NCBI GenBank assembly: GCA_964016885.1
Contig: OZ024743.1
Coordinates: 107,570,001-107,634,000 of the forward strand
Direction: 5' to 3'
DNA from: Eledone cirrhosa
Lineage: Eukaryota
Length of the DNA: 64,000 nucleotides
Shown: positions 2,906 through 62,644 of the stretch, piece by piece
How positions within the stretch are numbered: position 1 is the stretch's first letter
Layout of the letters: every line of letters starts with the position of its first letter
Notes under the pieces: model-generated
The model's input: only the letters and a program-made list of their open reading frames with translations
The model's database searches: none
Told to the model about the DNA's origin: nothing
Translations under genes and position numbers: made by a program

Positions 2906-5900
2906 AAGAGCAATGAAGATGGAGACGAGGAAATACGAGATATATTGCTTACAAACGGTGGTTATAAAAATTATGGAAGCTTCTTAAGCGAAGATTTGAT
3001 GAAAGTAACACACGTGAGAAATGATGGATGGCTTTTATTTATTTTTTGTTTCTTTTATATTTCTCTTTTCCTAATCATGTTTACTTCTTATTTATTTCTA
3101 TATTTATTTTATTTACTTTTCGTTTTTCTTCATGTTGATATCCATCTGCATCTCTTTCTAATTTTGTTTACCTACTTGAATGATTGTTTGTTATTTCCTC
3201 CTTCTTCCTTTTTGTATTTTTTTGTCTTTGTTGATTTTGTTCTTCACTTTCTTTTATTACTTTCACTAATTTCTTTTTCTTTTTCTTCCATCTTTTAATT
3301 TTTTCTTTCGTTTTCATTATTTCTCTACTTTTCTTCTTGTATTACCCTATTCTTTCCTATATTGTTCACTTACTTTATTGGGTCCGGCTCTCCGCACATG
3401 GAGTTCAATTCATGCCGGGATTAGTTTTACCTTTTAGCATTTCGGGGACGATAAATAAAGTACTAGTCCACTACTTAGATCAAATCTTCTTTATAATTCT
3501 CAATCTCCGCCCCGTCGCTTTTTTGTAGTTTTATTGTTATTTCAATTCATATGGAATTTATTCAGGAATGCAGTGTATTGATCTGTTTTGGGACAGAAAT
3601 GACACCTATTTTTAACAGACCAATCAACTGTACATGGGCTCCTTCCTTGTTTGAAACACCAGTTCATATCCACTATTACTTACAATACTTTTCTTTGTTT
3701 ACCCGTAGCTCCTGATAAAGTCGGAGGAAGACCGGCAGAGCATAGGGTATGCAATTTAGACTTTGCATAACCCATCCCACTCCAGGTCTGGACTCAGCGG
3801 ATTGCTTCAAGAGAAGGAGAGTGAGATAAAGAGAAAGGAAGTAGTAGCCTGGGATTTCGAAATGACGAAGTTGACTTCGGATTCGTAATCAGAGTGCGCA
3901 GAACTCCAGAACTAATACCAAATCTTACAATCCAACGTTCTAACAACTCGCCAATTCGCCGCCTGTTAATAGGAAAATACAGATAGCTGAATACTTTAAC
4001 TTGGTTGGATTCAAGATATCACCATATTAAACTGATATCATTTGCAGTCGCTACTTAACTTGGATAGATATTCTCTGCTGGAATAATTTGGTGATTTAGG
4101 AAAAAATACAAATTTACATCTCTAGAGACGACAAAATCATCGGTAAATAATAAATAAGAATACGAGGAATACAATTCTCTCGTTAGTTATTGCTTGCTCT
4201 AATGTAAAATAAGCCTGATCTAACCAACCTCTACGTAATGGAGACTGCATAGCGGGGACATTTTCGTTACAAGTGTCCGTTTGCTGCTTTAATTATATAT
4301 TTAATTTGTCTGATAGACAATTTTAAACACATAGCCTGCGTTGTCGCCAGGAAACTGTTGGGAGTCGAAGCAGTTATTGTTTATCTCAATCATTTTACAT
4401 CGACAACTGTTGGACAAAAACACAATACCTGATCAAAAGAGTGTGATGAACAAAGCAAAGAAATATCATTCATGAAAGCACACATTAAGGCGTTTCACTC
4501 TAATATTGCTGAAACGTTTGGCAAGATCTTGTACATAGTCGTTGTTAATAGATATTGCATATCTTTAACCAGCGAGACACAGATGAACGAGCCTTCATTT
4601 TAAATACGATGGTCACCAAAGAGGACTTAAATAACTCCTGGCTAGGTTCATAATCATCTTACTTCGATCGTCGATTACTTCCCTCATACTTGTAAATATT
4701 GGATACATATACTCACTATTGATGTGTTAAGCTTCCCTTGCTCTGACAGGAAAAAACAGATACATGTCCTTCCGTAGCAATATTGGGAAGCATCTACAAG
4801 GTTTTCAACAATGAGTGTGCCAACTGTTCTGTTGATGGAAGAGGCTGCTCATGAAATTAATGTGTGCCTAACTGAGCATTCCGCACAAAGGTGTAACTTT
4901 AACAATTTTCAGACAAATTCTGAGTGAGACAGTATTTGACAAAGCAGTCTCTTTCTATTTTAGGCACAGTCCGTCTGGCGATTCTCCAAACAATTTCTTT
5001 CTAAACAATTTAACTGACAACGACACTTGCCCAAGATCCCACGTAGTTGGAATTGTTCTAGGACCAAATGATTGGGGAGCACGCTTCTTAACGATTCATG
5101 CAGCTTTAATATAGTTATAATATATACGAAATAAAAGATGATATGGTTACAGGTATAATAATATTTTAGTTTCTTCTATTGCTAGCATTCGCTATTTACC
5201 ATACCAGTATCAGAGTCTTGCAAAGGGTCAAAGGCTCTGTTTTTACTCCGCTATCAAAGACTTGAAGTGTAAAAAAGAACAAAAAATGCAACAACGATAA
5301 CAAGTAATCAAATAAATCAACGAGAAAGAAAAAAGCATGCATTAAAAAATAACCAAAACTGACGTAGGCAATAGCAAATATTTTAGATACAAATACCTCT
5401 TAACCTATCTTCCCATTTTTTTTCTTTTACCCTCTATTAATTAATGATGAAATGCAGATTATGTTGCTAATGTGCAGGATTCATTAAGGAAATCTGATGC
5501 TTTCTGATTATATGTGTTTAACTTGACGTATCAAACGTGGAATACCATCAGATTCCATCAGATACAGCTTTCATGTACATCTAAAGTATCGTGTTGTTAG
5601 TGGTGATATATAACCCAGAATAAAAAGAATACAGAAACACACTCCAGTATACACCCATCCACAACATATGAATATATCTCTCTATATATATATATCTATA
5701 TATATATATATATATATGCAGGGATAGAAATTCAAACACACCTATACAGATATGTATGTGCATGTATATGACTGTGTTATGTGAGTGTCTCGTGTGTTTG
5801 TATGAATTGTGTGCGTCTGGTATACACTGAGTTGGTCGGGAAAAACAGGAACTTTTAAAAATGTTACGTTATGCGTGTAGGCGTAATTGACTGACATTCG

Positions 5901-14369: not shown

Positions 14370-14666
<297 letters not shown>

Positions 14667-14673
14667 AATATAG

Positions 14674-14710
<37 letters not shown>

Positions 14711-14731
14711 AATATACATATATATATATAT

Positions 14732-14779
<48 letters not shown>

Positions 14780-14787
14780 GTAAATAT

Positions 14788-14818
<31 letters not shown>

Positions 14819-14915
14819 AAGATATATATATAAATATATATATATATTTATAATATATATATATAAATATATATATATATTTATAATATATATATATAAA
14901 TATATATATATAAAT

Positions 14916-15473
14916 ATAAAATATTAAAAAAATAATGAATAAAACAATGAAACAGTTCCTTATATTAAACAAAAAAAGTTCGTTATTTAACGATCGTTTC
15001 TAGGACATATATGTGTTAGAATTGGCATGCATATTCAACAGATCTATGTACAAAATTATACAAAATTATACAAACTATCAAATTTAATATACATACCAAC
15101 ACACATATATGCCGTCTTCAGAAATAATTATTTCTGAAGACGGCATATATGTGTGTTGGTATGTATATTAAATTTGATAGTTTGTATAATTTTGTATAAT
15201 TTTGTACATAGATCTGTTGAATATGCATGCCAATTCTAACACATATATGTCCTAGAAACGATCGTTAAATAACGAACTTTTTTTGTTTAATATAAGGAAC
15301 TGTTTCATTGTTTTATTCATTATTTTTTTAATATTTTATCTTGACTCTGTATTCCGTTTATCTTTCACCGAAAGTGATTTTTGAATGCATCTCTTCTTTC
15401 CATGATATCCGGATTACATTGAGTTCTTCATACGGATTGGACACTACCGTAAACTCTTGGTAGATTTATCTAC

Positions 15474-15475
<2 letters not shown>
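14916..15475. mobile_element. (TA)n-flanked perfect palindrome (212-bp arms, no spacer, centre 15127/15128) plus a ~135-bp one-sided tail; contains an HHR-like motif
   Basis: Exact mirror around GAAATAA|TTATTTC. Confidence 0.9.
15128..15272 (+). ncRNA. Type I hammerhead-like motif with a very long stem II
   Basis: TTATTT-CTGAAGA-[~115 nt imperfect hairpin]-GAAA-CGATCG-TT-AAATAA. Confidence 0.5.
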
Positions 15476-15516
<41 letters not shown>

Positions 15517-15551
15517 ATATATATATATATATAAATATATATATATATATT

Positions 15552-15574
<23 letters not shown>

Positions 15575-15583
<9 letters not shown>

Positions 15584-15845
15584 GATACTATTTATAGTTA
15601 TGTATATTTAAACATTTTTATAGTTATGTATATTTTAAACTATGAACAGGGCAGGTCAGTAATTTATTACTACCTTATTGCCAGTAAGATAAATAGCTCA
15701 ATGTAAAAACATCAGTTGTTCTACAGAGCAGTTATATAGAATTCACAAGAATCAAAGCTATGTTCAAAGCATGTATTCACTTACATTTGTTTCATCCAAA
15801 CCTAGGCTTGGGGTCTTCGGAGCATGTTTGAATGTTTGTACATAT
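15575..15845 (-). mobile_element. pLTR-like repeat homologous to 29240-29471, with an HHR relic at 15778-15824
   Basis: Minus strand reads GCT-CCGAAGA-cc-CCAAGCCT/AGGTTTGG-at-GAAA-CAAATG-TA-AGT. Confidence 0.6.
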
Positions 15846-17117: not shown

Positions 17118-20100
17118 AACAGTGCTGTTGTTGTTAGGCAGTATTATTTGTACAACAGTGTTGTTATTAGGCAGTATTATGTCTAGATCAGTGCTGTTGT
17201 TGTTAGACAGTATTATGTCTAGAATAAAGTACCAGTAATGCACTGGGTAATTACTGGCCTTGTGCCTAAAGTAGAAACAATTATGTCTAGATCAGTGCTG
17301 TTGTTGTTGCAGCACTGATCTAGACATAATACTGTCTAACAACAACAGCTCTGATCGAGACATAATACTGTCTAACAACAACAGCACTGATCTAGGCATA
17401 ATACTGCCTAATAACAACAGCACTGATCTAGACATAATAGTGTCTAACAACAACAGCACTGATCTAGACATAATACTGTCTAACAACAACAGCACTGATC
17501 TAGACATAATACTGTCTAACAACAACAGCACTGATCTAGACATAATACTGTCTAACAACAACAGCACTGATCTAGACATAATTGTTTCTACTTTAGGCAC
17601 AAGGCCAGCAATTACCCAGTGCAAGTACCAGTAATGCACTGGGTAATTGCTGGCCTTGTGCCTAAAGTAGAAACAATTATGTCTAGATCAGTGCTGTTGT
17701 TGTTAGACAGTATTATGTCTAGATCAGTGCTGTTGTTGTTAGACAGTATTATGTCTAGATCAGTGCTGTTGTTGTTAGACAGTATTATGTCTAGATCAGT
17801 GCTGTTGTTGTTAGACACTATTATGTCTAGATCAGTGCTGTTGTTATTAGGCAGTATTATGCCTAGATCAGTGCTGTTGTTGTTAGACAGTATTATGTCT
17901 CGATCAGAGCTGTTGTTGTTAGACAGTATTATGTCTAGATCAGTGCTGCTGTTATTAGGCAGTATTAAGTCTAGATCAGTGGTGTTGTTGTTAGACAGTA
18001 TTATGTCTAGATCAGTGCTGTTGTTATTAGGCAGTATTATGTCTAGATCAGTGCTGTTGTTGTTAGGCAGTATTATGTCTAGATCAGTGCTGTTGTTGTT
18101 AGACAGTATTATGTCTAGATCAGTGCTGTTGTTATTAGGCAGTATTATGTCTAGATCAGTGCTGTTGTTGTTAGGCAGTATTATGTCTAGATCAGTGCTG
18201 TTGTTATTAGGCAGTATTATGTCTAGATCATTGCTGTTGTTGTTAGGCAGTATTATGTCTAGATCAGTGCTGTTGTTGTTAGGCAGTATTATGTCTAGAT
18301 CAGTGCTGTTGTTATTAGGCAGTATTATGTCTAGATCAGTGCTGTTGTTGTTAGGCAGTATTATGTCTAGATCAGTGCTGTTGTTGTTAGGCAGTATTAT
18401 GTCTAGATCAGTGCTGTTGTTGTTAGACATTATTATGTCTAGATCAGTGCTGTTGTTATTAGGCAGTATTATGTCTAGATCAGTGCTGTTGTTGTTAGGC
18501 AGTATTATGTCTAGATCAGTGCTGTTGTTGTTAGGCAGTATTATGTCTAGATCAGTGCTGTTGTTATTAGGCAGTATTATGTCTAGATCAGTGATGTTGT
18601 TGTTAGACAGTATTATGTCTAGATGAGTGCTGTTGTTATTAGACAGTATTATGTCAAGATCAGTGCTGTTGTTGTTAGACAGTATTATGTCTAGATCAGT
18701 GCTGTTGTTGTTAGACAGTATTATGTCTAGATCAGTGCTGTTGTTGTTAGACAGTATTATGTCTAGATCAGTGCTGTTGTTGTTAAACAGTATTATGTCT
18801 AGATCAGTGCTGTTGTTGTTAGGCAGTACTATGCCTAGATCAGTGCTGTTGTTGTTAGACAGTATTATGTCTAGATCAGTGCTGTTGTTGTTAGACAGTA
18901 TTAAGTCTAGATCAGTGCTGTTGTTATTAGGCAGTATTATGTCTAGATCAGTGCTGTTGTTGTTAGACAGTATTATGTCGAGATCAGTGCTATTGTTGTT
19001 AGGCAGTATTATGCCTAGATCAGTGCTGTTGTTGTTAGGCAGTATTATGTCTAGATCAGTGCTGTTGTTGTTAGGCATTATTATGTCTAGATCAGTGCTG
19101 TTGTTGTTAGACAGTATTATGTCTAGATCAGTGGTGTTGTTATTAGGCAGTATTATGTCTAGATCAGTGCTGCTGTTATTAGGCAGTATTATGTCTAGAT
19201 CAGTGCTGTTGTTGTTAGGCAGCATTATGTCTAGTTCAGTGCTGTTGTTATTAGGCAGTATTATGTCTAGATCAGTGCTGTTGTTGTTAGACAGTATTAT
19301 GTCTAGATGAGTGCTGTTGTTGTTAGGCAGTATTATGTCTAGATCAGTGCTTTTGTTGTTAGACAGTATTATTTCTAGATCAGTGCTGTTGTTATTAGGC
19401 AGTATTATGTCTAGATCAGTGCTGCTGTTATTAGGCAGTTTTATGTCTAGATCAGTGCTGTTGTTGTTAGACACTATTATGTCTAGATCAGTGCTGTTGT
19501 TGTTAGACAGTATTATGTCTAGATCAGTGCTGCTGTTGTTAGACAGTATTATGTCTAGATCACTGCTGCTGTGTTAGACAGTATTATGTCTAGATCAGTG
19601 CTGTTGTTGTTAGACACTATTATGTCTAGATCAGTGCTGTTGTTGTTAGGCAGTATTATGTCTAGATCAGTGCTGCTGTTATTAGGCAGTATTATGTGTA
19701 GATCAGTGCTGTTGTTATTAGGCAGTATTATGTCTAGATCAGTGCTGCTGTTATTAGGCAGTATTATGTCTAGATCAGTGCTGTTGTTGTTAGGCAGCAT
19801 TATGTCTAGATCAGTGCTGCTGTTGTTAGGCAGTATCATGTCTAGATCAGTGTTGTTGTTATTAGGCAGTATTATGTCTAGATCAGTGCTGTTGTTATTA
19901 GGTAGTATTATGCCTAGATCAGTGCTGTTGTTGTTAGACAGTATTATGTCTCGATCAGAGCTGTTGTTGTTAGACAGTATTATGTCTAGATCAGTGCTGC
20001 TGTTATTAGGCAGTATTAAGTCTAGATCAGTGGTGTTGTTGTTAGACAGTATTATGTCTAGATCAGTGCTGTTGTTATTAGGCAGTATTATGTCTAGATC

Positions 20101-23100
20101 AGTGCTGTTGTTGTTAGGCAGTATTATGTCTAGATCAGTGCTGTTGTTGTTAGACAGTATTATGTCTAGATCAGTGCTGTTGTTATTAGGCAGTATTATG
20201 TCTAGATCAGTGCTGTTGTTGTTAGGCAGTATTATGTCTAGATCAGTGCTGTTGTTATTAGGCAGTATTATGTCTAGATCATTGCTGTTGTTGTTAGGCA
20301 GTATTATGTCTAGATCAGTGCTGTTGTTGTTAGGCAGTATTATGTCTAGATCAGTGCTGTTGTTATTAGGCAGTATTATGTCTAGATCAGTGCTGTTGTT
20401 GTTAGGCAGTATTATGTCTAGATCAGTGCTGTTGTTGTTAGGCAGTATTATGTCTAGATCAGTGCTGTTGTTGTTAGACATTATTATGTCTAGATCAGTG
20501 CTGTTGTTATTAGGCAGTATTATGTCTAGATCAGTGCTGTTGTTGTTAGGCAGTATTATGTCTAGATCAGTGCTGTTGTTGTTAGGCAGTATTATGTCTA
20601 GATCAGTGCTGTTGTTATTAGGCAGTATTATGTCTAGATCAGTGATGTTGTTGTTAGACAGTATTATGTCTAGATGAGTGCTGTTGTTATTAGACAGTAT
20701 TATGTCAAGATCAGTGCTGTTGTTGTTAGACAGTATTATGTCTAGATCAGTGCTGTTGTTGTTAGACAGTATTATGTCTAGATCAGTGCTGTTGTTGTTA
20801 GACAGTATTATGTCTAGATCAGTGCTGTTGTTGTTAAACAGTATTATGTCTAGATCAGTGCTGTTGTTGTTAGGCAGTACTATGCCTAGATCAGTGCTGT
20901 TGTTGTTAGACAGTATTATGTCTAGATCAGTGCTGTTGTTGTTAGACAGTATTAAGTCTAGATCAGTGCTGTTGTTATTAGGCAGTATTATGTCTAGATC
21001 AGTGCTGTTGTTGTTAGACAGTATTATGTCGAGATCAGTGCTATTGTTGTTAGGCAGTATTATGCCTAGATCAGTGCTGTTGTTGTTAGGCAGTATTATG
21101 TCTAGATCAGTGCTGTTGTTGTTAGGCAGTATTATGTCTAGATCAGTACTGTTGTTATTAGGCAGTATTATGCCTAGATCAGTGCTGTTGTTGTTAGACA
21201 GTATTATGTCTAGATCAGTGCTGTTGTTGTTAGACAGTATTATGTCTAGATCAGTGCTGTTGTTGTTAGACAGTATTATGTCTAGATCAGTGCTGTTGTT
21301 GTTAGACAGTATTATGTCTAGATCAGTGCTGTTCTTGTTAGACAGTAATATGTCTAGATCAGTGCTGCTGTTGTTAGGCAGTATTATGTGTAGATCAGTG
21401 GTGTTGTTGTTAGACAGTATTATGTCTAGATCAGTGCTGTTGTTGTTAGACAGTATTATGTCTAGATCAGTGCTGTTGTTGTTAGACACTATTATGTGTA
21501 GATCAGTGCTGTTGTTGTTAGACACTATTATGTGTAGATCAGTGCTGTTGTTGTTAGACAGTATTATGTCTAGATCAGTGCTGTTGTTGTTAGACAGTAT
21601 TATATCTAGATCAGTGCTGTTGTTGTTAGACAGTATTATGTCTAGATCAGTGCTGTTGTTGTTAGACAGTATTATGTCTAGATCAGTGCTGTTCTTGTTA
21701 GACAGTAATATGTCTAGATCAGTGCTGCTGTTGTTAGGCAGTATTATGTGTAGATCAGTGGTGTTGTTGTTAGACAGTATTATATCTAGATCAGTGATGT
21801 TGTTGTTAGACAGTATTATGTCTAGATCAGTGCTGCTGTTATTAGGCAGTTTTATGTCTAGATCAGTGCTGCTGTTGTTAGACAGTATTATGTCTAGATC
21901 ACTGCTGCTGTTATTAGACAGTATTATGTCTAGATCAGTGCTGATGTTATTAGGCAGTATTATGTGTAGATCAGTGCTGTTGTTATTAGGCAGTATTATG
22001 TCTAGATCAGTGCTGCTGTTATTAGGCAGTATTATGTCTAGATCAGTGCTGTTGTTGTTAGGCAGCATTATGTCTAGATCAGTGCTGTTGTTATTAGGCA
22101 GTATTATGTCTAGATCAGTGCTGTTGTTGTTAGACAGTATTATGTCTAGATCAGTGCTGTTGTTGTTAGGCAGTATTATGTCTAGATCAGTGCTGTTGTT
22201 GTTAGACAGTATTATTTCTAGATCAGTGTTGTTGTTATTAGGCAGTATTATGTCTAGATCAGTGCTGCTGTTATTAGGCAGTTTTATGTCTAGATCAGTG
22301 CTGTTGTTGTTAGACACTATTATGTCTAGATCAGTGCTGTTGTTGTTAGACAGTATTATGTCGAGATCAGTGCTGCTGTTGTTAGACAGTATTATGTCTA
22401 GATCACTGCTGCTGTGTTAGACAGTATTATGTCTAGATCAGTGCTGTTGTTGTTAGACACTATTATGTCTAGATCAGTGCTGTTGTTGTTAGGCAGTATT
22501 ATGTCTAGATCAGTGCTGCTGTTATTAGGCAGTATTATGTGTAGATCAGTGCTGTTGTTATTAGGCAGTATTATGTCTAGATCAGTGCTGCTGTTATTAG
22601 GCAGTATTATGTCTAGATCAGTGCTGTTGTTGTTAGGCAGCATTATGTCTAGATCAGTGCTGCTGTTGTTAGGCAGTATTATGTCTAGATCAGTGTTGTT
22701 GTTATTAGGCAGTATTATGTCTAGAAATAAAGTACCAGTAATCTACTGGGTAATTTTCTGGCCTTGTGCCAATAGTAGAAACAATTATGTCTAGATCAGT
22801 GCTGTTGTTGTTAGGCAGTATTATGTCTAGATCAGTGCTGTTGTTGTTAGGCAGTATTATGTCTAGATCAGTGCTGTTGTTATTAGGCAGTATTATGTCT
22901 AGATCAGTGCTGTTGTTGTTAGGCAGTATTATGTCTAGATCAGTGCTGTTGTTGTTAGACAGTATTATGTCTAGATCAGTGCTGTTGTCGTTAGACAGTA
23001 TTATGTCTAGATCAGTGCTGTTGTAGTTAGGCAGTATTATTTCTAGATCAGTGCTGTTGTTGTTATACAGTATTATGTCTAGATCAGTGCTGTTGTTGTT

Positions 23101-24857
23101 AGACAGTATTATGTCTAGATCAGTGCTGTTGTTGTTAGGCAGTATTATGTCTAGATCAGTGCTGTTGTTGTTAGGCATTATTATGTCTAGATCAGTGCTG
23201 TTGTTGTTAGACAGTATTATGTCTAGATCAGTGGTGTTGTTATTAGGCAGTATTATGTCTAGATCAGTGCTGCTGTTATTAGGCAGTATTATGTCTAGAT
23301 CAGTGCTGTTGTTGTTAGGCAGCATTATGTCTAGTTCAGTGCTGTTGTTATTAGGCAGTATTATGTCTAGATCAGTGCTGTTGTTGTTAGACAGTATTAT
23401 GTCTAGATGAGTGCTGTTGTTGTTAGGCAGTATTATGTCTAGATCAGTGCTTTTGTTGTTAGACAGTATTATTTCTAGATCAGTGCTGTTGTTATTAGGC
23501 AGTATTATGTCTAGATCAGTGCTGCTGTTATTAGGCAGTTTTATGTCTAGATCAGTGCTGTTGTTGTTAGACACTATTATGTCTAGATCAGTGCTGTTGT
23601 TGTTAGACAGTATTATGTCTAGATCAGTGCTGCTGTTGTTAGACAGTATTATGTCTAGATCACTGCTGCTGTGTTAGACAGTATTATGTCTAGATCAGTG
23701 CTGTTGTTGTTAGACACTATTATGTCTAGATCAGTGCTGTTGTTGTTAGGCAGTATTATGTCTAGATCAGTGCTGCTGTTATTAGGCAGTATTATGTGTA
23801 GATCAGTGCTGTTGTTATTAGGCAGTATTATGTCTAGATCAGTGCTGCTGTTATTAGGCAGTATTATGTCTAGATCAGTGCTGTTGTTGTTAGGCAGCAT
23901 TATGTCTAGATCAGTGCTGCTGTTGTTAGGCAGTATCATGTCTAGATCAGTGTTGTTGTTATTAGGCAGTATTATGTCTAGATCAGTGCTGTTGTTATTA
24001 GGTAGTATTATGTCTAGATCAGTGCTGTTGTTGTTAGGCAGTATTATGTCTAGATCAGTGCTGTTGTTGTTAGACAGTATTATGTCTAGATCAGTGCTGT
24101 TGTTGTTAGACAGTATTATGTCTAGATCAGTGCTGTTGTAGTTAGGCAGTATTATTTCTAGATCAGTGCTGTTGTTGTTATACAGTATTATGTCTAGATC
24201 AGTGCTGTTGTTGTTAGACAGTATTATGTCTAGATCAGTGCTGTTGTTGTTAGGCAGTATTATGTCTAGATCAGTGCTGTTGTTGTTAGGCATTATTATG
24301 TCTAGATCAGTGCTGTTGTTGTTAGATAGTATTATGTCTAGATCAGTGGTGTTGTTATTAGGCAGTATTATGTCTAGATCAGTGCTGTTGTTGTTAGACA
24401 GTATTATGTCTAGATCAGTGCTGTTGTTGTTAGGCAGTATTATGTCTAGATCAGTGCTGTTGTTGTTATACAGTATTAAGTCTAGTTCAGTGCTGTTGTT
24501 GTTAGACAGTATTATGTCTAGATCAGTGCTGTTCTTGTTAGACAGTATTATGTCTAGATCAGTGCTGTTGTTGTTAGATAGTACTATGTCTAGATCAGTG
24601 CTGTTGTTATTAGGCAGTATTATGCCTAGATCAGTGCTGTTGTTATTAGACAGTATTATGCCTAGATCCGTGCTGTCGTTGTTAGACAGTATTATGTCTA
24701 GATCAGTGCTGTTGTTGTTAGGCAGTATTATGTGTACAATAGTGATGTTGTTGTTAGGCAGTATTATGTGTACAATAGTGATGTTGTTGTTAGGCAGTAT
24801 TATGTGTACAACAGTGTTGTTGTTGTTAGGCAGTATGTGTACAATAGTACTGTTGTA
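17118..24857. repeat. 36-bp minisatellite (~200 units; consensus GTCTAGATCAGTGCTGTTGTTGTTAGRCAGTATTAT) with higher-order duplications, an inversion and embedded SINE tails
   Basis: 12-aa periodic ORFs on both strands (MSRSVLLLLDSI / SNNNSTDLDIIL); SINE tails at 17224-17282, 17624-17680 and 22726-22787; inverted block 17310-17623. Confidence 0.98.
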
Positions 24858-25555: not shown

Positions 25556-25894
25556 TTAATATTAATATTACTATTAATATTCTCTACATTCCTTACATCA
25601 AACTAAAATACGTTGACAATCTTTTAATAATGTCTTCCTTGTTAAGTTTGTGGCCTGGTTTTGATTAACTAATGAATATTTCCAGCTCTGCGCACCTAAC
25701 TTCAGCATGAACCCAGCCACCTAGCTGCTTTCTACTGCATATTGCACATTGAGCCTTTACGCTTTGGCTTCTAACTAACTCACCAATCTCTCCTCTCATA
25801 TCTCCTCTACTATCTCCATCTCTCTCTTTAAGATTGGTTACTCTTGAACTGTGTATATATTTATATATATATATATATTTATATATTTATATAT

Positions 25895-25925
<31 letters not shown>

Positions 25926-25938
25926 AATATATAAATAT

Positions 25939-26015
<77 letters not shown>

Positions 26016-26125
26016 AATATATAAATATATATATATAAATATATATATATACCTATATATATATAAATATATAAATATATATATATATATATAAATACAT
26101 ATATATATATATATAAATATATATA

Positions 26126-26354
26126 TTGTTATACTTTGGGAGGGTCATGTTGCCAATAAGAAACACACGCACCAGCTGCTTTCACTTCAATTTATTATAT
26201 ATTTATAAATTTATAAATTTAAAAATTTCTGGTTCGTTGGTTGGTTCCACAACCAGATAGTTGTTTATATATAGTCATTGTTCTTTCGTCACACACTCTG
26301 TGACCTCTTCAGTGACTGGGGATTCCTTTCTTTGTTTCCGTGCCTCTCCTTTGT
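26126..26354 (-). mobile_element. PLE 3' terminal segment (pLTR with HHR), near identical to 33001-33234
   Basis: Sequence identity to the PLE end; abuts (TA)n; HHR motif at 26273-26317. Confidence 0.9.
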
Positions 26355-27417
26355 ATTTTAGTATGTTAATTTTTTTGTTTGTTCTTTTTATTTTTCTGTT
26401 TTGGGGGATACTGCACTTGGTTTTGTTCACAGGTTTTGGTGGGGTGTGTTTTCTACATATATTTGTGACAGTGTCTACAAAGATCTGCCAAGATGTTTTG
26501 ATGTTGGTCGAAGTGTGTGCGTGTGTAAAAGACCAGTCGATATGCGATAGTTCGTTCATAATTGCATCCCAGTTTGCATTGTGGAGATCCATGTTATCAA
26601 ATGGGTGGGCTTGATGGAGGACCCTGGGATTAGCTTTCGGCTGGTGGAATCTCAGGTTACAAAGAACCATGTCATGGTCTGAGAGAAGGGTTTTTTCCAC
26701 TCTAATATTATGTATAGTGTTAGTGTAGTTACTAAACACTAGATCCAGAATGTTCTTCTGATGCCTCGTTGGAGCAAGGACAAGTTGGGACAGGAAAAAC
26801 TCATTCATGAAGTCAAGAAGTGACTCGACAGCCTCTTTGTCAGTGGTTGAGGCTGTGGAGCCTGGTTTCAAACTACATGTAGACCAATCGACACAGGGTA
26901 GATTAAAGTCTCCTATCAAAAGTATGTTGCTAGAATGGCACTGTTTAATAAAGCATTTAAAACTGTTCAGGCATTCTTTGAAACAGAATATGGGTGTTTG
27001 TGGCGACCTATAGAGCCCAACTAATGTCAGGTCATTGGCTTTATTGTGCACAGTGACTGATTCACAGTATCCATTATAGAATGTTGTGTTGCCATCTGCC
27101 GTAAAGGAATCATGCAGGAAAATGGCAGTTCCACCCCTCCTTCTGCCAATACGATCCGCACGGATGGTTGTAAAATTTCTCACTCTTACTTCGGCCTCCA
27201 AGTGGGAGTTGTCAAGGTGGGTCTCAGTAAGAATGAAGAAGGGGATGTGAAATGGATAGTTACCAACCCAATCCTCAATGAATTGAATCTTCCATTTCTG
27301 TGCATTGATGGATGGGCTGATACCTTGTGTATTGAGTAAGAATGTGGAGGCTAGTGTGGTGGCTGGTTTTGACTGTTGCAGAGGGCTTGTTTTGTGATTG
27401 TGTGTTAGTGACAGCAA
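26275..27417 (-). CDS. LINE ORF2 N-terminus: apurinic/apyrimidinic-type (EEP) endonuclease, truncated before RT and reading into the PLE pLTR
   Basis: Motifs LLNTQGI, LTETHL, RADR..RRRGGTAIF, GLYRSP, IGDFNLP, PTR..NILDLVFSN, SDHDMV. Confidence 0.9.
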   Translation of the reverse strand: MLSLTHNHKTSPLQQSKPATTLASTFLLNTQGISPSINAQKWKIQFIEDWVGNYPFHIPFFILTETHLDNSHLEAEVRVRNFTTIRADRIGRRRGGTAIFLHDSFTADGNTTFYNGYCESVTVHNKANDLTLVGLYRSPQTPIFCFKECLNSFKCFIKQCHSSNILLIGDFNLPCVDWSTCSLKPGSTASTTDKEAVESLLDFMNEFFLSQLVLAPTRHQKNILDLVFSNYTNTIHNIRVEKTLLSDHDMVLCNLRFHQPKANPRVLHQAHPFDNMDLHNANWDAIMNELSHIDWSFTHAHTSTNIKTSWQIFVDTVTNICRKHTPPKPVNKTKCSIPQNRKIKRTNKKINILKYKGEARKQRKESPVTEEVTECVTKEQ

Positions 27418-28614
27418 GGTTGGTGTTGGGTGATGGCTAAGATGTTTTTCTCTATCTCTTTTGCCAGGTTCATGTCTAAAAAAGAAAGAATTTTTTTTTG
27501 TTCAGGGAGCAGTTTTTGATTGGATTTGTAGTTACAACATTGGATAGAGTTGCAGTTCCCTCTTTTCTTGTTGTTGTTGTATTTGTTGTAATTGTGTCTT
27601 TGTGAACAGACTGGAGCAGCGTTATTTTTGTTGTATTCGTTGTTGTTGTGATCGTGTCTTTGTGACAAGACTGGAGCAGCATTACTTTTGTTGTTTTTGT
27701 TGTTGTAATCATGTCTTTGTGAGGAGACTGGAGCAGCATTACCGCAGCAGGGGGTGGTTTTATTTGGCATGAAGCCCCTTTTCTATTCGTGCGTTGTGTC
27801 CCAGGAAGATGAGTGAAAGGACAGTCAGGCAGCAGACATAGCCTCTCACGTTGGGAAAGTTGGAAGATTTTGGGACTGCGACCTATACGTGCAGGCAGCG
27901 TGCTTTGGTGATGGCTGGCAGTGTTAGTGCGCCTAGTACCCGGTAAATGGGTAAATATACAGTCGCTACGTGTGCATAGCCTCTGACGTAGTGAGTAGCG
28001 GCATATTTGGGGGTTTCTAGTATGTGTAGTGGGGGTGCATACAGCACCATAGAACTTTTTTTTTAATAGTTTTTTGACTATGGCATGGTTGTGGTGGTGA
28101 TGTGGGGGAAGAAAGCATTGGTGGTGATGATGATGATAACTGTGGTGGGAGAGAGAGCAGTGGTCCATTACTAGCAGTTGGTGTGGCAGGAGATGGTGAC
28201 GGTGCTGATGGCGATAATGATGGCCGAGTGAGTGGCTGAGTGATACTGTCATTTAGAAGTTCAGCGATTGTGCTTGAATTCAGTAGTGGTCGGTCCTGGC
28301 TTTCTGACTGTTATTGTTGTTGTGGCTGTTGTTGTTGTTGTTGTTGTTGTTGTTGTCCATTAGCGTAAATATGTCGAAGTTTTTTCAAAATGGTTTTGAA
28401 ATAATTTGAAAGAGACTTCGACGTGTTTTAGTTTGTTGTGTATCCGCTTAGCAGATCTCGTCGTAAATGTTTGGGCTGTTTTTTCAGCAATTTCATTCAG
28501 AAATGACGCGTTAATGTTTGATGTTTGTGACAGAGAAAACCATGTGTTTATTAAGAGGTCAATTTCATTTTCAGACCAAGTTCGTCCGTTGTGGGCTTGC
28601 TGGTCAGTAGTCAT
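27405..28614 (-). pseudogene. LINE ORF1, frameshifted: N-terminal Myb/SANT-like (trihelix) domain, Pro/Thr-rich linker, tandem CCCH zinc fingers, 3x 60-bp repeat
   Basis: RTWSENEIDLLINTW...EIAEK...RSAKRIHNKLKHV (28360-28614); CRYSLRQRLCTRSDCIFTH and a degenerate second copy LCLLPDCPFTH; lies directly upstream of the APE. Confidence 0.65.
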
Positions 28615-29175
28615 ATAGTTTTTTTTTTATTATTATCCTTGTGTGCGTTTTAAGATATTTGTTATTTGATACGTGAGTAAGACTTTGGTTATTTGAAGAA
28701 ATTAAAGAATCGCGTATATATATATATTTTTTCTCTCTTATGGATGTGAATTTGGTTGTTTGAGGATGTTAATAGTTTTTGGTTATTTCGTTGTTTGAAG
28801 ATATCCAAGGAAAAACGAGTGTATATAATAGCTTGTAGTTAAGACGACATACTTGCAAGTTTGTAGGGAAAGCACGTGTATTTGTATATAGTTTCCTTAT
28901 GTGAGTGAGGCTTTGGTTATTTGGTTGTTTGAAGATATTAAGAGAAAAACGAGTGTATATAATAATCTGTAGTTTAGAAAACGTACTTACTCACGAGTTA
29001 GTAGGAAAAGCACGTGGTTACAAGTATATATATACAAATATATGTTCGGTCAAATAGGCTTAAAAGCTGGGTACCTGGCAACTGACTTGGTAGAGAGTAA
29101 TATAAACACGTCTATTCACCTCAACAGTCAATATATATATATATAAATATATATATATAAATATATATATATATA

Positions 29176-29471
29176 GATTACAATAATCAAAGTTCAGTTT
29201 AAATCATTTATTTGCTTACAATTGTTTCCTCCAAACCTCGGTTTGGAGGAAACAATTGTAAGCAAATAAATGATTTAAACTGAACTTTGATTATTGTAAT
29301 CCCTATATAACTGCTCTGTAAAACAACCGATGTTATTACATTGAGCTATTTATCTTACTGTTAATAAGATAGTAATGAATGACTATCTTTCACTATTTGG
29401 GGTTTGTATACAAAATATATAACCATAAAAGGTTTTATTATATACATAACCATAAATAGTATCCTTAATAC
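29176..29471. mobile_element. (TA)n-flanked foldback element (62-bp perfect arms, 2-nt loop) plus a 170-bp tail
   Basis: Arms 29176-29237 and 29240-29301; right arm carries GAAA-CAATTG-TA. Confidence 0.85.
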
Positions 29472-31952: not shown

Positions 31953-32457
31953 TATTAGAATTGGTGCTCTGAAATAGCTATATATATATGAATGTATATA
32001 TAGTGTGTTTTGCAATACACTGTATGCTTAATTAAAAGCATTTCGAAGACCTTATGCTATTCTTTTAGAGTAGTGACAGACTCACTTACTTTAATTTTCA
32101 GCAAACAGGGGAGATAAAGCTGACAAGGCTTTTTCGCATTTATTGATGCTTATCAAAGCCAACTACTCCTCCTGTTTGATGAAATCATGGATGTTTGATT
32201 CTTATAGAATTCTAGTAAATAATCAGGAACTGATTATACCGAGCGGTTGCCGGTCATGCAGAAATTGAAAATTAGAATTGGTGCTCTGAAATAGCTATAT
32301 ATATATGAATGTATATATAGTGTATTTTGCAATACATATATACATAGCAATTTCAGAGCACCAATTCTAATTTTCAATTTCTGCTTGACCGGCAACCGCT
32401 CTGTATAATCAGATCCTGATTATTTACTAGAATTCTATAAGCACCAAACATCCATGA

Positions 32458-32548
32458 TTTCAGCAAACAGGAGGAGTAGTTGGCTTTGATAAGCATCAAT
32501 AAATGCGAAACAAGACCTTGTCAGCTTTATCTCCCCTGTTTGCTGAAA
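32458..32548 (+). ncRNA. Type I hammerhead ribozyme, U3-A8 core variant
   Basis: Long stem I TTTCAGCAAACAGGAGGAG-tagtt-GGCT / AGCT-ttat-CTCCCCTGTTTGCTGAAA; core TTGATAA; stem II GCAT-caataa-ATGC; GAAA; stem III ACAAG-ac-CTTGT; GUC site after 32522. Confidence 0.8.
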
Positions 32549-32780
32549 ATTAAAGTAAATGAGTCTGTCACTACTCTAAAACAATAGCATAAGGTCTTCG
32601 AATTGCTTTTAATTAAGCATACAGTGTATTGCAAAACACACTATATATACATTCATATATATATATATAGCTATTTCAGAGCACCAATTCTAATTTTCAA
32701 TTTCTGCTTGACCGGCAACCGCTCGGCATAATCAGTTCCTGATTATTTACTAGAATTCTATAAGAACCAAACATCCATGA

Positions 32781-32871
32781 TTTCAGCAAACAGGAGGAGT
32801 AGTTGGCTTTGATAAGCATCAATATATGCGAAAAAAGGCCTTGTCAGCTTTATCTCCCCTGTTTGCTGAAA
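32781..32871 (+). ncRNA. Second tandem U3-A8 hammerhead
   Basis: GGCT-TTGATAA-GCAT-caatat-ATGC-GAAA-aAAGGCCTTG-TC-AGCT; predicted site after 32845. Confidence 0.7.
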
Positions 32872-33397
32872 ATTAAAGTAAGTGAATCTGTCACTACTCT
32901 AAAAGAATAGCATAAGGTCTTCGAAATGCTTTTTATTAAGCATACAGTTTATTGCAAAATACACTATATATACATTCATATAAATATATATATATATATA
33001 TTGTTATACTTTGGGAGGGTCATGTTGCCAATAAGAAACACACGCACCAGTTGTTTCACTTCAATTCATTATAATAAATTTATAATAAATTTATAAATTT
33101 ATAAATTTCTGGTTGGTTGGTTGGTTCCACAACCAGATAGTTGTTTATATATAGTCATAGTTCTTTTGTCACACACTATGTTACCTCTTCAGTGACTTGG
33201 GATTCCTTTCTTTGTTTCTGTGCCTCTCCTTTGTTCTGTCCTACGCCATTTTGTTTCTGTGTGTGTGTTGTGTGCTCAGTCTGCGCATGCGCCACATCCG
33301 GGTGTCTGTGTGTGTTTGTGTTCATTTATTTATTTGTTTATTTACATGTTACTGGTTGGTTGTTTGTTCTATGTGTGTGTGTGTTTTCATTTTGTCC

Positions 33398-34609
33398 TTA
33401 ATTGTAAGTTGTGATGTTGCTGTTCCACTCATATTTTCTATTTAATTTTGGTTGTAATTCTTTTATGTTTATTGCCTCTGTAATTTGTCTAAACATTGCG
33501 TCTTTTCTGTGTGTAGATTCTATTTTTATTTCTATGTTCTCTAATTTACCCTTGTGTTCTATTTTAGCATGTTGGTAGAGTACAGATGATTCTTTATTAC
33601 CTAGAAGGTCTCGCCAGTGTTCATTTATCCGTTCCCCTACACTACGAGCTGTCTCACCTATGTACACTATATTTTTGTCTCTACATTGTCCTTCAGTACA
33701 TCTTATGCTATACACTACATTCCTAGTTTTACAGTTAATATGGGGGCTTATTTTACAGGTTATACATTTCTTATCTATACATGAGGGTCTTTGAAAAGGG
33801 TATGTCTTGCTAATAAGTGTTTTTACGGAGGTACCTGGTCTTTCTACTATCTTAATATTGAGTTTATGTTTATTTAGGGCCCTTCTAAATTTGTAAGCTA
33901 ATTCACCTCTAGGGGTTGTATCGATGAACATTACACTCTGGTATTTATTGCTATCATACCATGAGTTTATTCTATTAGCCTTGTTCCTAGTTCTTCCTAT
34001 TCTATTCCAAAATTTGCTCCTATACAAGGGGCAGGTCCCATTTATGTCATTATTTACCATTTTTTCCCATTTGGTTCTGGCTCCTCTATACACTCTGATT
34101 TTATCTCTCTGATTGTAGCCAGAGAACTGCATACGGTGGATGAAGTGTTGTATGTGTCTCTCTAGTTCTTCGGGGTTGCACATGCGGGACACATTTCTCA
34201 TCACCCGTACCAAATCCGCAATCAGTATGTTGATTTTGGTATGGTCCGAAACGGCCGAGTTTCGGTGGATCAGATGTTTGGAAGTCATGGGTTTGGCATA
34301 ATGGGAATGGGGGATTTGTTTTTTGTTGTTAATGGTATCTAACCAGAGCTCTGTGTCTAGTACAGGTAATCGATGGTTGGGGTGTTTACTTGGGTAGTCT
34401 ATAGTAACTCTAATGCTCTGGTGGATGGAGTTTGCTATTTGCTGGATGCTTTCCATTGTGTTTTTTTCTAGTTCCTGACTGTTCTCTAGTGGGGGTGTCT
34501 TAACTACGATGTTTATACCATCTACGTAGCGGGAGTACATTGTCAGGGTTAAGGGGTCTTCTAATTGTTCTTTAAGTTTAAGTTTAAGTCTACTGTCCCA
34601 CCATACCAT
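33398..34609 (-). pseudogene. PLE RT thumb plus GIY-YIG endonuclease (catalytic YVDD mutated to YVDG)
   Basis: Provided 403-aa ORF; continues upstream through a frameshift near 34695 into ORFs 34621-35190 and 35631-37190. Confidence 0.9.
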
Positions 34610-37502
34610 GAATAAGTTAGCTATGTCGCCTGCAATGCTAACACCAATGGCTGCTCCTTCCTCTTGGGCATATGTTTTTCCATTAAATTTAACATATGTT
34701 CCTTAAGGGTTAGTTTTATGCTGGCCGCTACCGCATGTGCAATCATTTTCTTCAGTTCATCGTGGTTTTCGGGTGTCCGTATGGCTCTGGTCCACCCGTT
34801 CCATCTATCTGTGTGGGTTTTCTTGGCTATTGAGGTAATGGTAGGTGGTCTGCCTCTTGCTGGTCTTGTAGGGCACAGGTTGCTAAGGTCATATGTGTCT
34901 AGGTAATTATTACTATAGGTAAGCTTAAGTAGAAGTCCCAGCTCACTGGTATCAATCCCACGGAACACAACCTTGCTCTCACTGATCATTTCTACGCATT
35001 TCTCCACAGCAAAATCCACGTCAATAGATGGATACAGGGACACAACATCCATACTGCCTATTATGTAGTTTGTTAGGTCCTCAGATCGGTTACCCACGCC
35101 GATTCTGCTGAGGAGGTCCTCCGTGCTGTCACATACATCTGGGGACATTTCAATGATGGGGCGTATGATCAGGGAGAGGAAGTAGGACATTCTGTAGTTA
35201 CTAGCAATGTTAGCTCCACAGACTGGCCGTGTTGGTGGTCACGCGACAGGGTCACAGCCCGTGTTATGGTCTTTTCGAAGCCCATACAACGCCGGCACGT
35301 CATTGTTCCAGGCCTGGAAGATGTTGGCAGTCCTTTTGTTGGGCTGCATTATATTCGTCCACATCACCATATGGGCATTGAGGGCTTTTTCTCTATCCTC
35401 ATGCTCCTGTGGTGTTACCTCTCTTGTGTTAGTGATGTGGGGTTGCATTGCCTGGATGTAGTTTGGCAGGCTGTCAACTGACATTGTTGGAAAGCATGCT
35501 ATCTCTCCATTACGTGAGCGCTGCATGAGCTTACGCAAGCCATTTGCAGATTTTTCTCCCAGTTGCTGGGCCTCCATTCTATTATGCTTCTTGCTATACT
35601 GTTCTATAATATTTCTAAGTTCGGATCTAGCTATACTAAATTGTGCTTCTGTTTGTTCATCGACCTGCGACGGCTATTGCGTGCGTTTGTTAAATGGTAA
35701 AGTCGTGGCGTGGACTCGTCGCAGGTCGAATGATTTATCGGAGGGATTATAAAACGTAGAGTTCCAGGCTGCTGCTTTATGTGTACTAGTGCTATTGTTA
35801 TTGTTAGTTGTGTTGTTTCTATTTCTATTTCCACCAACAGCCTCATGGTTGTTTCTATGTCTCTCACAATGTTAGCTCCACAGAGTGGCCGTGTTGGTGG
35901 TCCTGCGACAGGGTCACAGCCCGTTTTATGGTCTTTTCGAAGCCCATACAACGCCGGCACGTCATTGTTCCAGGCCTGGAAGATGTTGGCAGTCCTTTTG
36001 TTGGGCTGCATTATATTCGTCCACATCACCATATGGGCATTGAGGGCTTTATCTCTATCCTCATGCTCCTGTGGTGTTACCTCTCTTGTGTTAGTGATGT
36101 GGGGTTGCATTGCCTGGATGTAGTTTGGCAGGCTGTCAACTGACATTGTTGGAAAGCATGCTATCTCTCCATTACATGAGCGCTGCATGAGCTTACGCAA
36201 GCCATTTGCAGATTTTTCTCCCAGTTGCTGGGCCTCCATTCTATTATGCTTCTTGCTATACTGTTCTATAATATTTCTAAGTTCGGATCTAGCTATACTA
36301 AATTTTGCTTCTGTTTGTTCATCGACCTGAGACGGCAATTGCGTGCGTTTGTTAAATGGTAAAGTCGTGGCGTGGACTCGTCGCAGGTCGAATGATTTAT
36401 CGGAGGGATTATAAAACGTAGAGTTCCAGGCTGCTGCTTTATGTGTACTAGTGCTATTGTTATTGTTAGTTGTGTTGTTTCTATTTCTATTTCCACCAAC
36501 AGCCTCATGGTTGTTTCTATGTCTCTCACAATTACTCCTGTCTCTTTCCACTGGCTCATTGTTGTTATCTATCCTATTTTGTGTGTCTGTCTGTTCGTCT
36601 TGGTTATTCTCTTTGTCCTTAGTCTCCCTTCTCTGTTGAATGTTATTACTTGCCCCTATTTCTGTGATTTCTGTGCTACTGTTATTACTTGTTTTCTGTG
36701 TCTGTGTGTTTGTTAAGATTGTGGTGGTGGTGAGAGGCATTGAGTGTGTGAGTGTTGTGTTTGTTGGTGTGTGCTGTTGTTGATGTGTGTTGTTGTTGTC
36801 TCCGTGTGTGTTATTGTTGTTGTGTGTGTTGTTATTGTTGTTTGTGTCTGCGTGTCTGTTGTTGTTGTTTCTGGGTATGTTGTTATTGTTGTTGGTGTGT
36901 GTGTTGTTTTTATTGTTGTTTGTGTCTGCGTGTCTGTTGTTGTTGGGATGTGTGTTGTATATGTGTGTGCATATATTGTTGCTTTTGTTTTTGTTTTTGA
37001 GGCTCCAGCGTAGTTTTGTAAATGATTTTTCTATTTCTGACAGACAACTAATTATATTTACCTTCTTGAATGTCGCAAATTTCGGGGGTAAACATAACAC
37101 AGACTTCTTATCGTCATCTATTCTTGTGTTATCGTATATATTTGTGTTGTTTTTGTTGTTGAACTCTTCTGTTAATGAGGTGTCGGCCATATTTATACCG
37201 TCAATTTTGTCGGGATATCTATTGGTATTCTCTATAGTATCCTGATTTAGCTTTATCTGCTTAAGCCACTTTAGTTTCTTGTTAAAGTGCTTATCACATT
37301 CTTGAGTAATGAACTGTTCTTCAGGGCGTATAAGGCTTATAAATATTAGTTTCTCTCTTGGTGTGGTGATCCTAGCTATTTCTTGTATTAGGTTACGCTT
37401 ATGTTTTTCTTGATGACTTAATTCTCTATAGATCTTCTTTTTTATGTTTAGAATTAATGTTCGTTTTAGCCTATATGCTTGTTTTTTGGTGAGTTGTAAT
37501 CT

Positions 37503-38232
37503 GTTCTCTGCCTACAATCAGAGAGATAAAGTGAGAATGTATAGAGGAGCCAGAACCAAATGGGAAAAAATGGTAAATAATGACATAAATGGGACCTTCC
37601 CCTTGTATAGGAGCAAATTTTGGAATAGAATAGAAAGAACTAGGAACAAGGCTAATAGAATAAACTCATGGTATGATATCAATAAATACCAGAGTGTAAT
37701 GTTCATCGATACAACCCCTAGAGGTGAATTAGCTTACAAATTTAGAAGGGCCCTAAATAAACATAAACTCAATATTAAGATAGTAGAAAGACCAGGTACC
37801 TCCGTAAAAACACTTATTAGCAAGACATACCCTTTTCGAAGACCCTCATGTATAGATAAGAAATGTATAACCTGTAAACTAAGCCCCCATATTAACTGTA
37901 AAACTAGAAATGTAGTGTATAGCATAAGATGTACTGAAGGACAATGTAGAGACAAAAATATAGTGTACATAGGTGAGACAGCTTGTAGTGTAGGGGAACG
38001 GATAAATGAACACTGGCGAGACCTTCTAGATAATAAAGAATCATCTGTACTCTACTAACATGCTAAAATAGAACACAAGGGTAAATTAGAGAACATAGAA
38101 ATAAAAATAGAATCTACACACAGAAAAGACGCAATATTTAGACAAATTACAGAGGCAATAAACATAAAAGAATTACAACCAAAATTAAATAGAAAATATG
38201 AGTGGAACAGCAACATCACAACTTACAATTAA
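37503..38232 (+). pseudogene. Inverted duplicate of the PLE GIY-YIG region with a premature stop
   Basis: ORF 37444-38058 is nearly identical to the C-terminal half of the 403-aa ORF; CAA->TAA at 38056. Confidence 0.9.
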
Positions 38233-38433
38233 GGACAAAATGAAAACACACACACACATAGAACAAACAACCAACCAGTAACATGTAAATAAACAAATAA
38301 ATAAATGAACATAAACACACACAGACACCCGGATGTGGCGCATGCGCAGACTGAGCACACAACACACACACAGAAACAAAATGGCGTAGGACAGAACAAA
38401 GGAGAGGCACAGAAACAAAGAAAGGAATCCCCA

Positions 38434-38476
38434 GTCACTGAAGAGGTAACATAGTGTGTGACGAAAGAACTATGAC
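38434..38476 (+). ncRNA. Minimal type I hammerhead in the PLE pLTR
   Basis: GTCA-CTGAAGA-g-GTAACA-tagtg-TGTGAC-GAAA-GAAC-TA-TGAC; the copy at 26273-26317 has a perfect stem II GTCACA/TGTGAC. Confidence 0.7.
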
Positions 38477-38669
38477 AATATATAAACAACTATCTGGTTG
38501 TGGAACCAACCAACCAACCAGAAATTTATAAATTTATTATAATAAATTGAAGTGAAAGCTACTGGTGCGTGTGTTTCTTATTGGCAACATGACCCTCCCA
38601 AAGTATAACAATATCGGTTTCAACACACGATTTCAGATAAAGAATCTTGCTAAACAAATTCAGAAACGA

Positions 38670-38779
<110 letters not shown>

Positions 38780-39948: not shown

Positions 39949-40680
39949 TTATAGGACATCAGCTTTGTGAAAGGTCTTGTAGGATTTATGATTACAAAGT
40001 CCAAATAAATCGGTTCTTCGATTTATTATTGTGTTAAAATTTGAGATAATGGTACATTTTTCAACTAGATATAAATTACAAACACTAGATATGGAAGCTT
40101 TGGAGTATGGAGATGCGTTGTAGATTTTACGCCAAGAAATTTCGTAATTTATGTTTTTGTCTTTTAAGGACCAAATAAGTTCTGAGAGTGCGGTGCTGGT
40201 CCTTTTAAGTGGACATTTAAATGTAGAAGAATGATTATAGAATCTTGCTTTAAAGGAGGTAGAAGTAGAGCCAATGTAGGTATAGAAATTGGTACTAGTT
40301 ACCACTTTACATTCGTATACTAAGTTTTTATCGAGACAGAAATTACTAAGAGGACAATTAGTTCTAATAGGGCAGTTGCATTTACGATTTACATTATTTA
40401 CAGAGTTATTGGCAAGTGGCCCAGTATTAATTATATTAGGATCAGGAGTGGTGGAATTAACTAAAGGAGGTGCTAGAGTTTCTAGATTTACATTACTATT
40501 AGATGTATTCCTCAAAGTTACGTATGACGTCGTATTTATCCTCGTGTTATTTTGCCTAGAGTTTACATTGACGTTGGGCCTTATACTGTTATTATTATGA
40601 CTCTCATGGTTGGATGCATATGAGTTATTATTTAATTTTTTAGAATTGTCTTGAGATAATTTTTGAAATGTTCAAAGAAG
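39949..40680 (-). pseudogene. Penelope-like GIY-YIG endonuclease fragment
   Basis: CNCPIRTNCPLSNFCLDKNLVYECKV...YIGSTSTSFKARFYNH...INRRTDLFGLC. Confidence 0.88.
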
Positions 40681-62292: not shown

Positions 62293-62405
62293 CAATAAAT
62301 ATTTGTTCATATTATATACACTCTGCTTGTGCACAGCGTGCTTGATTGGTACTAACACCAGTACTTCCCTGTACTACCTACTATATATATATATATATAT
62401 ATATA

Positions 62406-62644
62406 TTGTTATACTTTGGGAGGGTCATGTTGCCAATAAGAAACACACGCACCAGATGCTTTCACTTCAATTTATTATAATAAATTTATAAATTTAGGAA
62501 TTTATAAATTTATTATAATAAATTGAAGTGAAAGCAACTGGTGCGTGTGTTTCTTATTGGCAACATGACCCTCCCAAAGTATAACACTATCCGTTTCAAC
62601 GCACGTTTTCAGATAAAGAATCTTGCTAAATAAATTCTGAAACG

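Follow-up and report, generated by a model that had tools for sequence, protein, structure and literature searches.

A LINE–Penelope fusion in a (TA)n tract of the Eledone cirrhosa genome, probably formed by deletion between neighbouring insertions

On the minus strand of a 64,000-nucleotide stretch of contig OZ024743.1 (the window; positions 107570001–107634000) in the 3.0 Gb Eledone cirrhosa assembly, the 5′ portion of a LINE passes directly into the pseudo-LTR (pLTR) arm of a Penelope-like element (PLE), and the resulting chimera is bordered by (TA)n at both ends (Table 1). We infer that two neighbouring insertions into one TA tract probably gave rise to it, with a deletion joining them during or following integration of the PLE. 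As most likely read, it is one inert fusion among many, arising where microsatellite-targeting elements crowd the same TA tracts and deletion then trims them.

The LINE portion (29129–26353) aligns to positions 7–2896 of a natural full-length copy, L062 (4905 bp), and switches without filler or poly(A) into the 229 bp PLE terminus (26126–26354), the two parts sharing only the dinucleotide AC. The first-pass annotation had described a LINE with a 5′ end, ORF1 and APE but no RT, changing at ~26354 into ~230 bp of PLE without a TA spacer, and the alignment to the intact LINE, which also defines the 2-nt microhomology, and the domain matches bear this out. Full-length siblings hold ORF1 plus an APE-RT ORF2 and end ~2 kb past the chimera's break; the RT lies in this final 2 kb, which is missing here and present in the sibling L066 (PF00078, E 3e-28). 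We take the family to be CR1-like from its APE and C-terminal motifs. Searching the window together with 50 kb below and 30 kb above it did not recover the missing 3′ half. The described 5′ end is nearly complete but slightly shorter than that of the longest copies, and ORF1 is present but broken; the AGACGTG noticed near the TA edge is there, and is retained in 8/10 other LINE 5′ ends. The LINE ORF does stay open across the join, for 26 codons before a stop, a read-through that calls for no explanation (chance about 0.3 by our estimate). There is no second pLTR at the LINE 5′ end of the chimera. The repeat that shares the TA tract on the PLE side (25570–25853) is followed by TA in 11/11 of its other copies.

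Table 1. Coordinates of the chimera, its flanks and the neighbouring PLE in the window
Feature	Position	Strand	Remarks
LINE 5′ UTR	28615..29129	-	~6 nt short of the family's longest 5′ end; AGACGTG at 29113-29107
LINE ORF1, disrupted by stops and frameshifts	27476..28614	-	Myb/SANT-like N-terminus, two CCCH-like repeats
Myb/SANT-like domain of ORF1	28372-28614	-	PF13837, E 5e-6
Two CCCH-like repeats of ORF1	about 27810-28010	-	PF22683, E 0.001, below cut-off
LINE ORF2 start: APE endonuclease and linker	26355..27501	-	PF14529, E 2e-13; cut at family position 2896
Junction, AC microhomology	26353..26354	-	Single genome-wide match
PLE pLTR arm, tail-less form	26126..26354	-	Contains the start codon of the PLE ORF at 26148
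Minimal type I hammerhead motif	26273..26317	-	Stems I and II of 5 bp each; an additional G precedes stem II; A in place of U16.1 at 26279
(TA)n tract at PLE end	25854..26126	.	Also terminates another high-copy repeat (25570-25853)
(TA)n tract at LINE 5′ end	29131..29175	.	Followed by another repeat, 29176-29471
Larger separate copy of the same PLE family	33001..38670	-	RT, CX4CX2C linker, C-terminal GIY-YIG; family reference, not donor
Inverted arm with tail of the PLE at 33001	37503-38614		Part of the 33001..38670 element

The PLE sequence, annotated at first as the 3′ terminus of the element at 33001, is indeed a PLE end, but it is a pLTR that carries the first codons of the PLE ORF (MTLPKYN) and in other arms continues into an optional tail of ~57–59 nt. 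It belongs to the same family as the element at 33001 but is not a copy of it: identity to that element is 92%, against 98% to distant copies, so the neighbouring PLE was not the donor. This anatomy matches that of Penelope pLTRs in PMC3846280 and PMC11167929, and the extra G before stem II of the hammerhead has a counterpart among the ribozymes of PMC4209133. The hammerhead motif was called by pattern, pairing and conservation; Rfam returned no hammerhead match, and folding of the region as a monomer fell short of significance (z −0.66), as a minimal motif would be expected to do. Core positions are retained in 80–82 of 82 other arms. The motif reported here is thus present, but U16.1, which is U in 80/82 other arms, is A in the chimera, and because of this core change the ribozyme is predicted to be inactive. 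With no RT, a broken ORF1 and a mutated ribozyme core, the chimera's product is predicted, from sequence, to be inert.

By the same lines of evidence the PLE family, whose arms number 5,668 or more by exact matching of a 27-mer, is characterized by a pLTR with a minimal type I hammerhead, an ORF start and an optional tail. In the 33398–34702 ORF, CX4CX2C precedes a GIY-YIG-like motif (PF01541, E 0.004, below cut-off). The element at 33001–38670 has head-to-head inverted arms, a 666-bp internal tandem duplication (35205–36532), a long N/T-rich stretch in its ORF and a left-arm hammerhead without G12. Immediately upstream of the region in which many PLE arms terminate, it contains AAAATGGCG and GCGCATGCGC (33255–33300, minus strand), which we take to resemble YY1 and NRF1 sites and which suggest a pLTR promoter.

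In the two-insertion reading, a near full-length CR1-like LINE and a PLE would each have inserted, in the same orientation and in either order, into one (TA)n tract flanked by two other repeats. End-joining on the 2-nt microhomology would then have removed the roughly 2 kb separating the two elements: the final 2 kb of the LINE, the TA spacer and whatever PLE sequence lay upstream. The loss could have occurred as a target-site deletion during formation of the PLE 5′ junction, or later, for example by collapse of a head-to-head inverted pLTR pair. The first-pass annotation had named such a microhomology-mediated deletion between adjacent insertions as its alternative; here it becomes the preferred explanation. 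What the annotation favoured, a switch of the PLE RT from its own end onto a LINE mRNA, started from the premise that LINEs lose their 5′ ends and not their 3′ ends.

That premise is false for this family in this genome. We sampled 89 LINE copies through an internal 25-mer that has 192 matches genome-wide at ≤1 mismatch, setting aside, of its 98 exact matches, 7 on small contigs and 1 local duplicate, together with the 94 matches that had one mismatch. The 3′ end is reached by 62/89 copies, with 3 more within 50 nt, one local duplication and one inversion. A further 22/89 are short of 100–2400 nt at the 3′ end, and at least 2 kb of sequence beyond contains none of it, although some of these breaks could be large later insertions and not deletions; six 3′-broken copies from an earlier sample, traced for about 25 kb, showed no remainder either. 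There are also 19 internal deletions of ≥50 nt in 18/89 copies, many with 1–8 nt overlaps. End loss by deletion thus appears routine in this genome for the LINE and, from the arm ends described below, for the PLE. The chimera carries a corresponding caution: 3′-truncated LINEs are common in such genomes. The 5′ end is the one rarely kept, being reached within 30 nt by only 7/89 copies and within 250 nt by 19/89.

The sequences abutting the 22 breaks show no sense bias. They include (TA)n (five), PLEs of other families in sense (two, L071 and L233), three antisense partners, namely a PLE (L180), an APE-bearing LINE that is broken as well (L173) and what we take from its motifs to be a Helitron-like helicase (L230), and also non-coding repeats. 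The joins of L071 (at LINE position 3940) and L233 (at position 2957) to 5′-truncated PLEs are direct and in sense. L027 (position 3770) joins directly, also in sense, to a 3′ end that we presume to be RTE-like; all three parallel the chimera's join at 26353. Six copies (L069, L075, L181, L187, L191 and L005) break internally, straight into (TA)n, several at AT microhomology; either a deletion reached into the tail or priming took place internally on a TA target. L068 and L077, which seemed to repeat the chimera's junction position, were query artefacts.

TA adjoins 57/62 intact LINE 3′ ends and 49/88 LINE 5′ junctions, and on the 5′ side is equally frequent in broken (9/17) and intact (36/64) copies. 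Because the LINE family is itself (TA)n-flanked, the TA at 29131 is uninformative about the inserting enzyme. ORF1, with its Myb/SANT-like domain (PF13837, at cut-off) and two CCCH-like fingers, is less broken in another copy (L068:7085–8251, minus strand). A literature search found no ORF1 of this composition and the ESM Atlas gave no usable match for it; as a speculation, the Myb/SANT-like domain could plausibly aid targeting to TA repeats.

Turning to the PLE side, we examined two samples of unselected arms (30 and 40, of at least about 214 nt), the second of which skipped obviously paired arms; the 5′ end was unresolved in 9/30 and 5/40, and one arm (L285) was reclassed as TA. Among the resolved arms, 3/21 and 7/35 (10/56 overall) have a foreign 5′ junction. 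Several of these arms retain 19–40 nt of an inverted arm before the foreign sequence begins, and in two (L268, L284) the partner is coding and antisense. An inverted partner is present for 15/20 resolved tail-less arms, which makes a lost partner arm plausible at the chimera. The chimera's PLE break falls within a 50-nt zone where 12/56 resolved arms end; a stronger hot spot had appeared among similarity-selected arms (about 13/29) and weakened in the unselected set. By extrapolation we expect roughly a thousand foreign 5′ junctions family-wide, and that one of them should land in this LINE family is unremarkable. Separately, exactly one arm is tailed in 20/21 inverted pairs with both outer ends seen (L260–L299, window:33001 and 38614), which fits two RT start sites, one on each target strand.

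The junction is real in the assembly and unique in it. A junction 26-mer has one genome-wide match at ≤2 mismatches, and the 39 further scored hits all fail to cross the join, so that a genome-wide junction search, proposed earlier as a way to reveal an amplifying chimeric family, yields none. No LINE join like the chimera's occurs among the 29 closest and 70 unselected PLE arms, and none of the 89 LINE copies (about half of the 192 matches) is joined directly to this PLE family. Of 2709 columns in the LINE part, 69 (2.55%) hold rare substitutions, and none of 100 LINE copies shares more than 4 of these alleles. Three k-mers that contain them are unique at 0–1 mismatch, and there is no second copy of the locus in the assembly. 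Because these alleles are unshared, capture from a decayed transcribed copy is disfavoured, unless that copy is missing from the assembly; capture from an active master is left untouched. Within APE the rare changes (7 synonymous, 16 non-synonymous) are as expected under neutrality (27% synonymous).

Measured against unselected arms, the chimera's arm has 5/229 rare changes (2.2%), and only 3/68 arms have 5 or more. Two candidate sub-family alleles are shared by only 2 other copies, so that 4–5 changes in the 229 nt are private, placing the arm among the oldest 4–10%. Although the family medians differ (2.2% for the older LINE, 0.8% for the PLE), the LINE part at 2.55% and the arm at 1.3–2.2% are indistinguishable in age (Fisher p 0.17–0.49). 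The ages are therefore neutral, with a rough likelihood ratio of two steps to a single event of 0.5–1.4 for 4–5 changes, and this is the main result against the two-insertion reading. An apparently older LINE (0–1 rare arm changes, p 0.04–0.09) was an artefact of similarity-picked siblings and vanished when unselected arms were used.

The main rival, which we regard as possible but unlikely, is capture of RNA in one event: the PLE RT would have primed at (TA)n, copied the pLTR, halted about where arms normally end and gone on along LINE RNA to the LINE 5′ end. The jump could have been onto the RNA of an active LINE, internally or at a premature poly(A) site; alternatively, the LINE's own RT could have primed on a broken PLE end, with the same result in sequence. 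The premise of the original proposal fails, as described above, but several observations fit capture, some of which also weigh against two insertions, as does the fact that no allele with an intact LINE was seen. Both parts lie in sense, the direct join has a 2-nt microhomology (ACAAA, we infer, if the RNA was polyadenylated at the join), the break falls in the common arm-end zone, the LINE is complete to its 5′ end and AATAAA is located 34 nt before the join. The ages of the halves are compatible with one event, no source copy would be expected if the donor was an active master, and L071 and L233 are two further sense LINE–PLE joins. Against capture stand the lack of a poly(A) remnant, the single copy, and the finding that antisense and DNA-transposon partners are as common as sense ones. 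No AATAAA or ATTAAA occurs in the 90 nt upstream of any of the 22 other LINE breaks, and only 1/52 long PLE copies has reached the divergence of the LINE part. The broader proposition that PLE RTs jump from the end of the pLTR template onto unrelated RNAs, so that single-pLTR retrocopies of foreign transcripts form in vivo, strikes us as slightly more doubtful again; if it were true, the chimera, L071 and L233 would be examples.

It is very improbable that a mis-join or collapse over TA tracts and repeats deleted 2 kb in silico. The locus does consist of nested repeats and TA tracts, and no junction-spanning read was seen: when short-read contigs (four runs from one study, at most two samples) were compared with 26240–26700, no piece among the matches listed bridged the join (there were 6275 further pieces), and the window's allele at 26616 was in no contig, a comparison that tells neither for nor against the join. 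The join, however, is set in complex sequence, with the TA tract 229 bp away, and two shared letters should offer an assembler no overlap. Rare alleles specific to each part continue up to the join itself, and the rare-variant loads of neighbouring PLE arms are normal (0.8% and 1.4%). A replicating, PLE-mobilised non-autonomous family that combines a LINE promoter with a PLE cis end is hardly tenable given the unique junction, for all that the chimera has an apparent promoter end and a PLE terminus.

The interest of the chimera lies less in this single locus than in a census of the PLE family's foreign 5′ junctions. Thousands of young PLE arms would permit a proper test of template jumping, and if such jumping occurs, the roughly one thousand foreign 5′ junctions expected would make it testable genome-wide. 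RNA capture, if it took place here, would be in vivo evidence that a telomerase-related RT, about whose cycle little is known, jumps end to end between templates. Elsewhere in the window, a satellite of 36-bp units occupies 17118–24836 (about 199 copies in the main array, 92% match), and many long fold-back palindromes lie between TA tracts (29168–29309, 31954–32992, 14620–15635 and 62403–62590). The palindrome at 62403 consists of two arms of the chimera's PLE family and the others of other repeats. A 240-codon ORF (39949–40671, minus strand) resembles the GIY-YIG end of another PLE family (tblastn match to L180).

Insertion-mediated target deletions and microhomology end-joining deletions are documented mainly for L1 and Alu. 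As most likely read, the chimera resembles them in its short microhomology, kilobase loss at the 5′ junction and lack of a TSD that could be seen in the TA flanks, though no pre-deletion allele has been seen at this locus. Set beside a non-autonomous PLE or retrozyme family, it has one junction match and a hammerhead core that is not intact.

The closest precedent, from Arkhipova et al. 2013 (PMC3846280), is Pen2_Av, which inserted into a non-LTR element without a TSD, its 5′ end joined directly to the LINE by microhomology. Its pLTR of ~200 bp, with the first ORF codons and an optional tail, is also like the arm described here. The chimera differs in keeping only the pLTR arm, in a LINE that lacks its 3′ 2 kb and in its (TA)n setting. 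The same source attributes solo pLTRs to recombination or deletion. It also describes PLEs that moved foreign sequence in trans (Pen3a-NRPS and the Pen1 spacers), placing such sequence beside a pLTR as in the chimera, and this speaks for RNA capture; in those cases, however, the cargo sits between pLTRs with a TSD, whereas the chimera has one arm and no second pLTR, which speaks against it. Mobilization of foreign sequence by PLEs is thus already published (PMC3846280), even if RNA capture were true here. For a PLE template switch onto LINE RNA, a literature search that most subscription papers lay beyond found no report.

The bipartite chimeric retroelements U6-L1 and MINE (Gogvadze et al. 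2007, PMC2104539) share with the chimera a direct same-sense join with a 5′-truncated retroelement as the 3′ part. In the chimera, by contrast, the 5′ part is not a full-length RNA, stopping at 2896/4905, a difference that counts against RNA capture; it is also a single copy, its 3′ part is a PLE and not a LINE, and any TSD is not visible in the TA. Its PLE family is nearest, by domains and pLTR anatomy, to the Neptune/Nematis-type EN+ PLEs, which, in Craig et al. 2021 (PMC8557442), likewise have inverted pLTRs with a tail at one end, a microsatellite bias, a hammerhead in the pLTR and, C-terminally, a GIY-YIG preceded by CX2-5CxxC, although the tail of ~57–59 nt exceeds the published 30–40 nt.
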